From a virus (lineage: Duplodnaviria > Heunggongvirae > Uroviricota > Caudoviricetes), in IMG/VR virus record IMGVR_UViG_2778261176_000005: a stretch of 4,071 bases of DNA; one strand, given 5' to 3'. A program made the translations under genes and the position numbers. Below are positions 1 to 4,071 of the stretch, piece by piece (positions within the stretch are counted from its first letter, which is position 1; each line of letters begins with the position of its first letter). The notes under the pieces are model-generated. The model searched no databases and had not been told where the DNA came from. It saw only the letters and a program-made list of their open reading frames with translations.

Positions 1-103
1 GCATATCGGTAATAGTGTCAATGACTGGTGTCTGGTTGTCCTTTTTTATCGACAGTGCACCAGCTCCGACGATTGTCGTCTTATTCGCGGTTGTGTTCAT
101 CAT
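1..103 (-). CDS. hypothetical protein, N-terminal part only (gene starts in window and runs past position 1)
   Basis: Tandem ATG ATG at 103..98 with GGTGA five nt upstream; frame is open to the window edge, with an in-frame stop upstream at 178..176. Translation MMNTTANKTTIVGAGALSIKKDNQTPVIDTITDM... is not recognised. The opposite strand is also open here (see findings), so strand assignment is uncertain. Confidence 0.3.
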   Translation of the reverse strand, partial: MMNTTANKTTIVGAGALSIKKDNQTPVIDTITDM

Positions 104-316
104 GACGTTCACCGTTACCAGCATCAACGCACGCACAAAGGGAAACACCCATACACAGGATTTGTCATCACCCAATTAGCACAACATCCGAGGGCAGCAT
201 CGTCCGCTGGCCCACAGAAGTCCGGAAAGTCATGGAAGGTCGTTGTTGGGAGGAGGTACAAATTCTCTCATGCAAAAAATACGTAAAATCGATAATAGCT
301 GGAAATAATTCAATAC

Positions 317-377
317 ATGCACTCTCGAAAGTGCATCAGCCAACCGCAGAACGTTATTGCATACAACGTTTCTGCGG
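317..377. terminator. two adjacent stem-loops downstream of the tfa remnant; possible terminator between transcription units
   Basis: Hairpin A 317..336: ATGCAC/GTGCAT 6-bp stem, 8-nt loop. Hairpin B 344..377: CCGCAGA-ACGTT paired with AACGTTTCTGCGG, with a 1-nt bulge. On the minus strand hairpin A is followed by a moderately T-rich tract (GTATTGAATTATTTCC), not a clean U-run. Confidence 0.3.
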
Positions 378-391
378 CATAATCCCAATGA

Positions 392-520
392 TTACTCCCT
401 GACAGGGTTCGTAGGCCACTCAATATCAGGTGCAGTTGATGTATCAACACGGTTCAGCAGCATCCGATACTTTTTCCAAGCTTCCAGCAACGGGGTTTCT
501 TCCTCCGTTGCATATACAGC
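392..520 (-). pseudogene. tfa: tail fibre assembly protein (Tfa) 3' remnant; conserved C-terminal segment only, no start codon or N-terminal domain
   Basis: Minus-strand frame 520..392 translates [42 protein letters not shown]. This matches the C-terminus of phage lambda Tfa as I recall it (...[39 protein letters not shown]). An in-frame TGA at 523..521 sits directly upstream, and the same frame further upstream is Cys/Trp-rich nonsense. Only an internal ATG (463..461) and a TTG (490..488) are available as starts, neither with a good SD. Confidence 0.75.
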
Positions 521-530
521 TCACCTTTTT

Positions 531-671
531 TCACCCACGATTAACCAACAGCCAGACCAGCAGACACGCCACCACCGGCACAGCAAAATCCATAAGGCTT
601 GCCACATCCCACACGCGCGGATCAAAACCGCCCCACCACGGCATATTCATACGCTTGCCATGCCCGAACAT
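531..671 (-). CDS. speculative small ORF (46 aa) with a predicted single transmembrane helix
   Basis: ATG 671..669 to TGA 533..531. Translation MFGHGKRMNMPWWGGFDPRVWDVASLMDFAVPVVACLLVWLLVNRG has an uncharged C-terminal stretch (FAVPVVACLLVWLLV) of roughly 15-20 residues, plausible for one TM segment. Weak SD (TGGAT). An in-frame TAG precedes the ATG, so there is no longer version. Confidence 0.2.
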   Translation of the reverse strand: MFGHGKRMNMPWWGGFDPRVWDVASLMDFAVPVVACLLVWLLVNRG

Positions 672-1179
672 TTCAATCCAGCGATATTCTGCCTAGGTGT
701 GTTCACGCGCAATGAAGAACGTACAACCGGCTATAGCTCTGTAAGCCCAGTTTCCGATAAGAAAGTGAGCGAATTAGATGATTAATCCTTTATATTCAAT
801 GCAATAGAATCAATTTTGAGGGGTTTTAAGGATTAGTGTAACAATACAGGTAATTCCATTGATATCAGTCTATTGCAATCTTGTTTTGGAGAATAGTTTC
901 GAGCACTTTTAATCTCTGCTATCACTTTTTCACCAAGGCTCTTTTATAGCTCTCCACTTAAAAACCCCGTCTGCTAAAATAGCCGGGATTATCATTTGTT
1001 AAAGAAAAATTCCTAAAATCCCCGCCAGCACAAACAATCACTTGCTCATTCATGCTTTATCAAGAAAATATCCCTGCAAGTTGTGTTGTTTCTTTCTGCG
1101 TCCCGACAGGGTGTTATGGTTCCCCACTTCTCTCGGGACGGACACTTAACGGACGGAAAATTTTCAGGTGTCATTCAGA

Positions 1180-1215
1180 CGTGCTTCGCCCCGGATTGGC
1201 AAAGCACGCTTTTTT
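1180..1215 (+). terminator. rho-independent terminator-like hairpin oriented on the plus strand, abutting the stop codon of the minus-strand fibre gene
   Basis: Stem 1180..1186 (CGTGCTT) pairs with 1202..1208 (AAGCACG); inner GCC/GGC pairs around a CCGGATT loop; then C and TTTTTT at 1210..1215. On the minus strand the same hairpin is preceded by an A-run and not followed by a U-run, so it is a plus-strand terminator or a 3' UTR stabiliser for stf. Confidence 0.5.
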
Positions 1216-1220
1216 CTGTC

Positions 1221-3962
1221 TCAGCTCATCCCGTTTTGTGACAGTGTTGTTCCGACAATCAATTTAACCAGCAGTTTGCAGGGTAATACTCCCCCTTCAG
1301 CATTCGCTTCTTCATCCAGTGTTTTCATATTCAGCGCATACCAGGGCGCGCCCTGCATAACCGCGCATACATCCACCGTCACAGTGCTGTTTGTCGCCGA
1401 AACTGCATTCACAAAATACTGTGCTGGTACATAGCGTCGCTCCTGATCCATATAGAGATAGCCTGGTTCAATCAGCGCCGACATAAATACCCCGATACCA
1501 CCAACGACGCCTTTCTTCAGTGGATTGGTAATTTCCAGCGTGAGTGCATAAACCCGTGAACCGTCGGGCAGACTCCTGAAAGTATCCAGGTTTGAATTCA
1601 GGCTTTTTGTTGCCACCTTGGGTATAACCGGATGCGCACCATCAACAAACAATGCGTCTGACTGCTTTTTCAACAGATTTGTTTTCGATGAAAGGATTTG
1701 TGGCACCGCCTCCCTGTACCACATTTTCGTTGTCGCGTTGTAGACAAAATTGACTGAACTGCCTGAACTGAGCTGTGCGGGAACATCAGGAATTTGTACA
1801 CCACGGGAGATAAATGATACCCGTGCAATATCATTTTTCGCAGCAATCGAAAGGCGTCCGCCATCCGCTGCACCTGAAACCAGATTAAACTGGATATATG
1901 ACAGCGACGAATCATTATCCACAAATAATACCGTATTATCATTCAGGTCATTCACAACAATCTGCGCATTGTCGACCGGGGTAACGTGTCTGATGTCATG
2001 CGTGAAAAATTCAATATCGCCTCCACCAATGACTGAGCGCCCGTTGATGCGCATAAAATCGCCCACCTGTAATTCAGGTGTTCGCCCCCAGCTGGCAACC
2101 GATATTGCCGACACGACATCAGATATTGTCACCCGGGCTGTTCTTCTCATCTGAACGCGCTTTATTGCCACGTTCACAGCCCCTTCTGAGCCTGTCACCT
2201 TACCTGCCCAGGCAAAAAAATCGCTCAGCGCAAACTCATCAATGCCCGCATAATTCTGATACAGATCCGGGTATGATTTGTTCAGTGCATCAAGAACCGC
2301 CCGGCCATATGTTTCAATTTCATCATGTGTACTGAGAACCCCAAAACGCCACGGTGCTACCGAAAAACGATCTTTCTGAACAAAACGTTGCCAGGATGCC
2401 TGTTCAGGATAGTCTGCTTCTCCCCAGTATGTTCTGAAACGACAGGCTGACGGTTCGAACAGAGATAATATTCCGTTCCTGATTTTATTCAGCGCCGCTG
2501 TATATCGTTCCTTCGCCTCTGCATCATCAAGCAGCTGGCAGAGCGATACCAGGCCCCGTAACCCGGCATACACTTCGGCATTATCCTGACAAAAATACAG
2601 CTCATACTGATTTCCCCCTGGTGCCCTGTTATTCTGGAACACCCGGGTCAGATTATACGGCCCTGTCTGACTGACCAGATTATTGTCTGCAACGCGACAA
2701 ATAACATCCCAGCGACTGTAACCGGCCACACCGGACGGCTCCAGTAACCAGGCTTTATCCGCAAAAGTGGCAATACAGGCGAGCCACAATGCTGCGTAGC
2801 TGTCCGTTGAGTCCGGTGCAACCGGATACCGGAGTGATGAATCAATATCCACAAAAAACCACTGCCATGATTCCGGAATTTCTTTAACCGTATTTCCCAG
2901 GCATTCCAGAACCAGTGTTCCTGTTCGCACAAAATCGCCACGTGATACAGTGCTGACATCGGGAACCGAATCCCCCGACACACCGGAAATATTGACATAA
3001 AAAAGTTTATTCCCGACCACAATTCGCTGACCGGAAATATATGAACTGTTGGTCTGAAAGGGTACAAATATTCCCAGCGTTATCGCCTTTTCACAGACAG
3101 TCTTCCTGTCCGCAAGCGTAAAAACCTTTCCTTCACTCTCATACATTGCGAGGAAGAGAAAATACCAGTTAATACCGCCTGATGCGGTCAGATAGCGATA
3201 CAGCCCATGACAGGCACCACCGGATATTTTAAGACTGGCAAGATAACCATTCAGATCCGTTACAGAGTACCGGGTTGATACTGCCTGGTGCGCATCAATA
3301 AATCCCCGAACGCTTTCTGCCGCCTCTTCAGCATCCCGGGCATCCTGTTTCGTTGCCTCCCTGTCTGATGCCGTGGCTTCCGCGTTCTTTCTGGCCTCAC
3401 TCGCAAAACGTTCCGCATCATTGCGGGCTGATGCTGCTGCCGCTGCATCCTGTCCTGTCTGAGCCGCTTTCTTTTCCGCATTTTGTGCATGACGTTGTGC
3501 GTTTCGCTCACTTTCTGCAGAATCTCCGGCTGCCTTTTTGGCATCATCTGCCGCCACTACAGCATCATGTGCCGCCTGTTGTATTTGTTCGCTGTCGCCC
3601 CGGACACCTTCGGCTATACGGTTAATTTCCGCTGCAATATCTTCAAAGCGTTTGAGAATATCCGGACGAAGATCATCTTCACTCACGGCCCCCAGGAAAT
3701 AATTCAGCGTGCCCGGCGGCGAATCCGCATACACAGTAATGTCACCGGCATATGACGGTGGATACCCCTCAATAAAAAGCGAAACGGCATACCGCCCCGG
3801 CTCAACATTCATGCTGTAACGCCCGGCTTCATCCGGATTTTCTGAGGCAAGGGTATTCACTATCACGGTATCGGTCGTTCTTTTTGCCTTCAGAACGATC
3901 GTACACCCCTGAACAGGTTTTCCTGTGCCATCCTTCAGCACACCGGAAATCAGAACAGACAT
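1221..3962 (-). CDS. stf: phage side tail fibre protein (lambdoid Stf-like), 913 aa: conserved N-terminal domain, Ala/Asp/Glu-rich linker, divergent C-terminal domain
   Basis: Single long minus-strand ORF (track ORF 1221..4004). I take the start as the second ATG at 3962..3960: it has GGAGG four nt upstream and gives MSVLISGVLKDGTGKPVQGCTIVLKAKR..., which parallels the lambda Stf N-terminus as recalled (MAVKISGVLKDGTGKPVQNCTIQLKARR...). Stop TGA at 1223..1221. Gene order lom - stf - tfa matches lambda. Confidence 0.9.
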   Translation of the reverse strand: MSVLISGVLKDGTGKPVQGCTIVLKAKRTTDTVIVNTLASENPDEAGRYSMNVEPGRYAVSLFIEGYPPSYAGDITVYADSPPGTLNYFLGAVSEDDLRPDILKRFEDIAAEINRIAEGVRGDSEQIQQAAHDAVVAADDAKKAAGDSAESERNAQRHAQNAEKKAAQTGQDAAAAASARNDAERFASEARKNAEATASDREATKQDARDAEEAAESVRGFIDAHQAVSTRYSVTDLNGYLASLKISGGACHGLYRYLTASGGINWYFLFLAMYESEGKVFTLADRKTVCEKAITLGIFVPFQTNSSYISGQRIVVGNKLFYVNISGVSGDSVPDVSTVSRGDFVRTGTLVLECLGNTVKEIPESWQWFFVDIDSSLRYPVAPDSTDSYAALWLACIATFADKAWLLEPSGVAGYSRWDVICRVADNNLVSQTGPYNLTRVFQNNRAPGGNQYELYFCQDNAEVYAGLRGLVSLCQLLDDAEAKERYTAALNKIRNGILSLFEPSACRFRTYWGEADYPEQASWQRFVQKDRFSVAPWRFGVLSTHDEIETYGRAVLDALNKSYPDLYQNYAGIDEFALSDFFAWAGKVTGSEGAVNVAIKRVQMRRTARVTISDVVSAISVASWGRTPELQVGDFMRINGRSVIGGGDIEFFTHDIRHVTPVDNAQIVVNDLNDNTVLFVDNDSSLSYIQFNLVSGAADGGRLSIAAKNDIARVSFISRGVQIPDVPAQLSSGSSVNFVYNATTKMWYREAVPQILSSKTNLLKKQSDALFVDGAHPVIPKVATKSLNSNLDTFRSLPDGSRVYALTLEITNPLKKGVVGGIGVFMSALIEPGYLYMDQERRYVPAQYFVNAVSATNSTVTVDVCAVMQGAPWYALNMKTLDEEANAEGGVLPCKLLVKLIVGTTLSQNGMS

Positions 3963-3966
3963 ATGT

Positions 3967-3971
3967 CCTCC
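3967..3971 (-). promoter_or_regulatory. Shine-Dalgarno sequence (GGAGG) for stf
   Basis: Minus-strand sequence reads TGGTGGAGGACAT then ATG; GGAGG lies four nt before the ATG at 3962..3960. Confidence 0.6.
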
Positions 3972-3972
3972 A

Positions 3973-3998
3973 CCAAAAGGCCCGCACGAACTGCGGGC
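3973..3998 (-). terminator. intergenic GC-rich hairpin with short T-tract between lom and stf; candidate terminator or attenuator
   Basis: Minus strand reads GCCCGCA-GTTCG-TGCGGGC followed by CTTTTGG (plus-strand arms 3980..3986 and 3992..3998, A-tract 3975..3978). 7-bp stem, 5-nt loop, only four U, so probably a partial terminator; it sits immediately upstream of the stf SD. Confidence 0.4.
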
Positions 3999-4025
3999 TG
4001 TCACAACGCGATATTCCCTGGCTAA

Positions 4026-4071
4026 TCAGAATTTATAACCGACACCCACGATGAAACCGTCAGTGCGCCAG
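4026..4071 (-). CDS. lom: Lom-family (Ail/OmpX-like) outer-membrane beta-barrel protein, C-terminal 14 codons plus stop; gene continues past the right edge
   Basis: Minus-strand translation of 4070..4026 is WRTDGFIVGVGYKF*, identical to the C-terminus of lambda Lom as I recall it (...GDWRTDGFIVGVGYKF). It also carries the aromatic C-terminal Phe signature of outer-membrane barrels and sits immediately upstream of stf as in lambda. Confidence 0.8.
   Translation of the reverse strand, partial: WRTDGFIVGVGYKF

Follow-up and report, generated by a model that had tools for sequence, protein, structure and literature searches.

A lambdoid side tail fibre with an exchanged distal module and a predicted glycosidase-like barrel

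The side tail fibre (Stf) of phage lambda is a non-enzymatic adhesin, and to our knowledge the enzymatic fibres characterised so far are almost all beta-helices or beta-propellers. Depolymerase-type fibres built on an alpha/alpha-toroid are rare: DepoScope found this fold in 11 of 984 proteins, about 1% of the predicted phage depolymerases (PMC11326577), and among Klebsiella prophages a survey counted it in 29 of about 3,900 domains (PMC12491483). In the literature we found neither an experimentally characterised alpha/alpha-toroid phage depolymerase nor a paper that connects a six-hairpin domain, or one resembling glycoside hydrolase (GH) family 15 (GH15), with tail fibres of any kind, lambdoid Stf included; matches to the term GH15 itself were set aside, as they concerned a Staphylococcus phage called GH15. 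Lambdoid phages owe their host range to the side tail fibres, and so do lambda-based delivery particles engineered for gut bacteria (PMC11338833). Here we describe the stf gene carried by a viral stretch of 4,071 nucleotides (IMG/VR record IMGVR_UViG_2778261176_000005, which corresponds to contig NLOS01000059.1 of assembly GCA_002230055.1; hereafter the window), and above all the C-terminal 691 amino acids (aa) of its product, hereafter the module.

We propose, with somewhat better than even confidence, that the module is a glycan-targeting receptor-binding module, probably a glycan-hydrolysing one, which would fold without the tail-fibre assembly chaperone Tfa. The proposal builds directly on the integrity of the gene, the mosaic junctions on either side of the exchanged segment, the predicted fold, the conservation of residues, purifying selection and the phage-tail context of the relatives; from these we infer the formation of a trimer, the binding and hydrolysis of a glycan, the identity of this substrate and the independence from a chaperone.

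The lambda-type anchor and the exchanged cassette

The fibre is a member of the lambda-type Stf by its anchor only. The gene, its first two domains and the chaperone remnant downstream of it are laid out as follows.

1221..3962, minus strand: complete stf gene, 913 aa plus a stop codon (1221-1223), from the list of open reading frames (ORFs) and RefSeq
3561..3962, minus strand: lambda-type Stf N-terminal anchor domain PF08400, aa 1-134 (Pfam E 1.5e-53)
3279..3560, minus strand: Ala/Asp/Glu-rich linker or shaft, aa 135-228, read from the composition of the sequence
395..511, minus strand: remnant of tfa (tail-fibre assembly chaperone), last 38 codons, preceded by a stop, from the translation; a partial tfa in E. 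coli A41

The first-pass annotation, made without database searches, had recognised a lambdoid Stf N-terminus, an Ala/Asp/Glu-rich linker and a replaced C-terminal module, with a boundary near position 3660, and each of these was borne out. The anchor shares 66% identity with lambda orf-401 across aa 1-117 (BLASTP), with nothing past aa 117, and the solved N-terminus of a lambda-type tail fibre (PDB 9e7m_Ta) matches aa 1-93. The tail-fibre families of PHROG reach from aa 1 to about aa 219 and take in the linker; this linker is probably a coiled coil and may be a trimeric one. The gene also occupies the position of a lambda-type stf, with J and lom of a lambdoid tail module immediately ahead of it.

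At the DNA level, similarity to lambda covers window positions 3661-4071 and then resumes only at 342-512, a segment that shares 89.6% identity with lambda tfa at the 3' end of that gene. Positions 513-3660 gave no DNA match to the lambda stf-tfa region, including orf-314, the distal tip, which was compared at the DNA level only and within that region. These comparisons, with the orf-401 protein and with the stf-tfa DNA, revealed no lambda-like distal shaft and tip. Mosaic junctions lie at 3660/3661 and at 512/513, the latter inside the truncated tfa gene. Because the similarity to lambda stops at 3661 and is found again at 342-512 inside this gene, the distal cassette of the fibre was, on the evidence of the DNA comparisons, exchanged; and because the last 38 tfa codons are all that survives downstream in place of an intact tfa, the right-hand junction of the exchange lies inside tfa. 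The exchanged segment is 513-3660 relative to lambda and 764-3660 relative to the prophage of E. coli F344, which has only 1-763 in common with the window; E. coli AH19B041 has 1005-4071 in common with it.

Predicted fold and conserved acidic residues

The module had been called unrecognised. It has no assigned function, and its 691 aa (window 1224-3296) gave no Pfam or NCBIfam match even at E<=10; phmmer and two profile searches (A2 and A3) against the PDB recovered only the N-terminal anchor and a short fibre motif of 7eea. The sequence had, however, already been clustered as phrog_33169 (PHROGs v4, "unknown function"), whose profile matches aa 212-912 over profile positions 139-841 of 842 with an E of 3.5e-279, a full-length match that makes the module a member of this cluster. 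None of the profile searches matched a characterised fibre-tip or tailspike family. As had been claimed, collagen-like or Gly-rich repeats of the lambda distal type are absent, so this candidate architecture was rejected, and the module contains no tandem repeats.

The division into domains below comes from a comparison with 33 close homologues and from an AlphaFold2 model of aa 223-913, computed with a 21-sequence alignment (mean predicted local distance difference test score, pLDDT, of 70, with the barrel mostly at 80-95).

2013..3278, minus strand: (alpha/alpha)6-barrel, glycoside-hydrolase-like core, aa 229-650, common to all homologues
2892..3071, minus strand: beta mini-domain between barrel helices, aa 298-357 (AlphaFold2 strands at module residues 76-135)
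2796..2813, minus strand: first conserved acidic pair, D384 and D387, in DSTDSY (aa 384-389), at the N-terminal end of a barrel helix, from conservation
2562..2594, minus strand: second conserved acidic pair, D460 and E463, in FCQDNAEVYAG (aa 457-467), in the first turn of a barrel helix, from conservation
1713..2012, minus strand: first beta-sandwich domain, portable, about 100 aa, aa 651-750, common to a subset of the homologues
1224..1712, minus strand: distal beta-sandwich tip, the rarest part, aa 751-913, only in P0001-6 and P0013

In the model, the module is helix-rich over aa 230-636 and strand-rich over aa 656-905. A helix-rich half followed by a beta-rich half had been expected from composition, together with an alpha/alpha-toroid plus beta-sandwich layout, and the predicted fold supports both. 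Since this fold is globular, a plain fibre shaft was rejected, as was a beta-helix tailspike, no such fold being present. The closest structures to the barrel are all enzymes, the top ones inverting hydrolases of clan GH-L, and no polysaccharide-lyase toroid ranks high among the matches; at the level of the fold, the barrel has the (alpha/alpha)6 form of the GH15 and clan GH-L catalytic domain. The two beta-sandwich domains resemble modules of tailspikes, lectins and pyocin fibres. Foldseek searches against viral predicted structures matched the beta domains to C1q-like and fibre heads and found no viral protein matching the barrel. The motif of the mini-domain, Y..G..V...gK.F.vNi.G.tG...P......G.F..dG...lE.lG, is also found in the receptor-binding domain of the tailspike of cyanophage Pam1 (7eea, profile E 0.0016), and the mini-domain may be a carbohydrate-binding mini-module. 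In two homologues (P0007 and P0008) the portable domain, aa 651-750, occurs in three tandem copies; because of this triplication, the roughly 100-aa unit suggests a length-adjustable spacer or a multivalent binding unit.

Conservation was counted over 144 distant representatives, less than 50% identical to each other. The acidic residues are kept almost throughout (D384 in 135 of 138, D387 in 138 of 138, D460 in 134 of 137, E463 in 130 of 137), as is, less strictly, N461 (121 of 137); in alignments A2 and A3, D384 and D387 vary hardly or not at all. S385, Y389, W405, F442, Q443, N461 and G467 are highly conserved as well. All the polar residues conserved across the family sit at the N-terminal ends of odd-numbered helices, as counted in the AlphaFold2 model, and such helix ends would face one side of an alpha/alpha-barrel, the usual active-site face. 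The gene is under purifying selection: relative to the AH19B041 allele, the ratio of nonsynonymous to synonymous polymorphism (pN/pS) stands at 0.18 for the gene as a whole and at 0.11 for the barrel (28 substitutions). A separate observation concerns the DNA of the second acidic pair, where a stretch of 48 nt (window 2548-2595, encoding FCQDNAEVYAG) is 96% identical to two homologues (L006 and L007) that elsewhere are only about 64% identical; this stretch could be a local recombination hot spot or reflect extreme constraint.

The fourth-best structural match to the barrel is MmpH, an endo-alpha-mannosidase which employs two acidic pairs, DxxD (D47, D50) and ExxE (E262, E265) (PMC9883506), and these pairs parallel the DSxD and DNxE of the barrel. 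Of 8 core homologues, 6 match the profile PF22422 (MGH1-like GH), all within one stretch of it at about positions 176-267, with a best E of 2.8e-6 for a trimmed core, and these weak matches start at the FCQDNAE helix. With full-length sequences, P0018 scores 25.4 bits and P0023 23.9 bits, short of the gathering score of 27 bits. The likeness to PF22422 (GH63-like) differs from family membership: the matches span roughly one quarter of the profile, the scored full-length homologues lie below threshold, and the window protein has no match at all. A sequence or profile similarity to GH15 or clan GH-L was likewise not found with Pfam, the PDB profile searches or hhalign. On the model, then, the barrel resembles a clan GH-L hydrolase in its fold, and its sequence places it in neither GH15 nor PF22422.

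Relatives, tail contexts and neighbouring genes

The module is rare. It is present in 2 of 5,426 complete E. coli genomes, A41 and AH19B041, with partial or distant matches to pieces of it in 11 further ones, mostly at 65-70% identity. The 90% cluster of the protein counts 127 member sequences, and an exhaustive search of 1.84 billion representatives with a hidden Markov model of the core returned only 158 proteins at E<=1e-3. IMG/VR contains five loci at 56-58% identity; a motif-pattern scan of one genome per species gave no confirmed locus, and the distal 163 aa searched alone retrieved one fragment only. None of the distant relatives carries an informative annotation.

Every relative whose context was examined belongs to a cluster of phage tail or fibre genes, be it of siphovirus, myovirus or podovirus-like type. 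Three kinds of anchor are found joined to the barrel core: PF08400, PF12571 and a weak T7-type N-terminus. With PF08400 it forms the second fibre gene of Mu-like prophages, directly after the regular fibre and its Caudo_TAP chaperone, and with PF12571 the second fibre of a P2/HP1-like prophage. An anchor-less form occurs in a T4-like fibre cluster, and distant forms in a P2-like baseplate cluster and on a podovirus-like contig. The combination in the Mu-like myovirus prophages, a siphovirus-type anchor that would have to attach to a Mu-type baseplate, is a surprising one. Among the homologues compared with the module, the barrel is kept constant while the tips are swapped. Because it is joined to different anchors across siphovirus, Mu-, P2-, T4- and podovirus-like contexts, this marks the barrel as a mobile head of the receptor-binding or depolymerase type. 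P0006, which has the same distal domain as the window protein, is the last gene of its prophage with no chaperone after it, an arrangement that fits the truncated tfa of the window. A DUF4376 gene comes after the variants of the P0018 type, which end in another C-terminus; this family may be a chaperone for the alternative tips. The coordinates in the respective loci are as follows.

L015-L020, 5001-7979 and 5001-7598: PF08400-barrel fibre genes of Mu-like prophages
L018-L020, 7606-8172, and L021, 4835-5389: DUF4376 genes, after barrel fibres (188 aa) or in a T4-like fibre cluster

In the window itself, a GTG at 4004 would give an alternative start and a protein of 927 aa, and the ATG gives the 913 aa used here; RefSeq also uses this ATG for the identical gene in A41 and AH19B041. 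The exact 913-aa protein is present on 3 NCBI contigs. DNA identity is 99.8% to A41 and 98.9% to AH19B041, both complete E. coli genomes, in which the gene order is tape measure, M, L, K, I, J, lom, stf; contig AATFTS010000032 has stf with the same neighbours. The remaining features of the window are the following.

4026-4071: 3' end of lom
764..1220, no strand: AT-rich non-coding spacer downstream of stf, part of it moving with the cassette (GC 35-44%)
531-755: pseudogene, annotated in A41
1-179, plus strand: 3' end of sitD, from annotation

The spacer at 764-1220 contains no convincing ORF and gave no Rfam or tRNA match, and scans of the whole window for Rfam families, tRNAs, tandem repeats, promoters and terminators found nothing relevant. 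Part of the spacer (1005-1220) was carried along with the stf cassette into the AH19B041 prophage, which occupies a different integration site, adjoining tRNA-Ser. In several strains sitABCD, the operon of an iron/manganese transporter, lies against the fibre end of the prophage (L001, 5550-8999; L009, 5002-8427). Many sequenced lambda-like phage genomes contain a fragment with a SitD annotation, 95% identical to window 1-765, and for this reason the sitD region is suggested to travel with the phage.

Candidate function and known systems

In the mechanism we favour, the protein would be a functional and probably trimeric side tail fibre of a lambdoid prophage, in which an exchanged receptor-binding cassette is mounted on the anchor and on a coiled-coil shaft reaching to about aa 228; the cassette would consist of a six-hairpin-glycosidase-type barrel with its mini-domain, a portable beta-sandwich and a distal lectin-like tip. 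The beta-sandwich domains and the insertion would bind a surface polysaccharide of E. coli (O-antigen, capsule or another exopolysaccharide), and the barrel would bind the chain of this glycan in a pocket with D384, D387, D460 and E463 along its walls, where cleavage would most likely follow, probably by acid/base hydrolysis as in the enzymes of clan GH-L. The virion would thereby pass the glycan layer, allowing J to reach its receptor in the outer membrane. The module appears to fold without the Tfa of lambda, whose gene was destroyed by the exchange.

Several results weigh against this proposal. Profiles A2 and A3 found no glycosidase in the PDB; hhalign comparisons of A3 with the Aspergillus niger glucoamylase (sequence verified as 3eqa) and with E. 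coli YgjK (GH63) gave probabilities of 0.3-0.4%, the glucoamylase scoring 0.3%; and the window protein has no match to PF22422, nor any Pfam match to the module at E<=10. Because no CAZy-type sequence match is significant, the conserved acids could not be superposed on a known acid/base pair, and because neither the PDB profile searches nor the hhalign comparisons reached significance, catalysis by the barrel is proposed from its fold and its conserved acidic residues. The pLDDT falls below 50 in two segments of the barrel, module residues 287-311 and 403-432, which take in some of the conserved DRFSVAPWRFG motif. Epimerases, cyclases and phosphorylases are examples of non-hydrolytic proteins that also have an (alpha/alpha)6 barrel. 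A tblastn search with the module gave no match in 50,697 phage genomes derived from INPHARED, so no isolated and sequenced phage is known to carry it. Finally, this end of the prophage is eroded, with a tfa remnant and a pseudogene, and virions made by this strain may no longer carry the fibre.

The main rival to a glycan-cleaving module is a non-catalytic head, lectin-like or purely architectural, that would bind a glycan reversibly as most lambda-type side fibres do. The failure to map a catalytic pair speaks for it, the two lectin-like beta-sandwich domains could by themselves be the receptor binders, and the Stf of lambda is itself an adhesin without enzymatic activity. We nevertheless regard such a head as rather unlikely, since the four carboxylates are nearly invariant in a very divergent family and stand at helix N-termini, a pattern of active sites and not of scaffolds, since the closest structures are enzymes without exception, and since a constant barrel with swapped tips fits a shared chemistry combined with variable targeting.

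Less probable still is an enzyme of another chemistry or target: a polysaccharide lyase, a phosphorylase- or epimerase-like protein, or a peptidoglycan glycanase. The breadth of functions found on (alpha/alpha)6 barrels leaves room for it, and the ranking of the structural matches, with inverting clan GH-L hydrolases on top and no polysaccharide-lyase toroid high on the list, argues the other way; moreover, the tip of a side fibre is not placed to reach peptidoglycan, and phosphorolysis or epimerisation would have no obvious use on a virion. Least credible, and in our judgement very improbable, is that the gene is a functionless leftover of a decaying prophage with an accidental fusion at its C-terminus. 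The truncated tfa, the neighbouring pseudogene and the scarcity of the module (2 of 5,426 complete E. coli genomes) would suit such a leftover. Against it stand an intact ORF of 913 codons with a pN/pS of 0.18, the 127 members of the 90% cluster, the recurrence of the same architecture next to intact tail modules in prophages that differ independently in type and integration site, and the conservation of the family across many phage lineages.

Going further than a glycan-cleaving module in this one fibre, we tentatively suggest, as a possibility held with clearly less confidence, a phage-specific glycoside hydrolase family, absent from Pfam and from the CAZy-type profiles tested, with a DSxD...FQ...DNxE centre in a GH-L-like barrel. 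Its members would be self-folding plug-in heads moved among siphovirus Stf and Mu-, P2-, T4-like and podovirus fibres, with swappable tips choosing which enterobacterial glycan is cut. The module may define a new glycanase family, which would not be conceptually surprising given how modular phage fibres are. An active module would be a glycanase of a new type, useful for typing E. coli surface polysaccharides or for stripping them off, and one that host-range engineering could readily employ: its family is defined, its domains are clearly delimited, four residues lend themselves to mutation, fusions to several anchors exist in nature, and a chaperone appears not to be needed. With a non-catalytic barrel, it would still be an unusual receptor-binding scaffold.

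Set against the systems already described, the fibre shares with lambda Stf (orf-401/orf-314) and Tfa its position after J and lom, its PF08400 anchor and an acidic, Ala-rich shaft; it is unrelated past about aa 117-228, lacks the Gly-rich distal shaft and the lambda-type tip, and is followed by a tfa cut down to its last 38 codons. From phrog_33169, which has no functional annotation, it differs by its lambda-type anchor, the N-terminal part of that cluster being of another kind. The barrel has the predicted (alpha/alpha)6 fold in common with clan GH-L (GH15 glucoamylase, glucodextranase, dextran dextrinase, GH125 and MmpH; PDB 9ju0, 1ulv, 1lf6, 7qsj), at a structural identity of only 10-12%, and unlike those enzymes it contains an inserted beta mini-domain and is embedded in a virion fibre. 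We found no experimental characterisation of this barrel family in the literature. Closest are the predicted alpha/alpha-toroid phage depolymerases, receptor-binding proteins with, as here, an N-terminal anchor and an alpha/alpha-toroid fold; those were found through CAZy-related profiles or in INPHARED phages, whereas the present module matches neither. As that class was defined (PMC11326577), by a tail-anchoring N-terminus joined to a fold of the polysaccharide-degrading type, the fibre falls within it, and it extends this rare class of depolymerase-type fibres, so far recognised only computationally.

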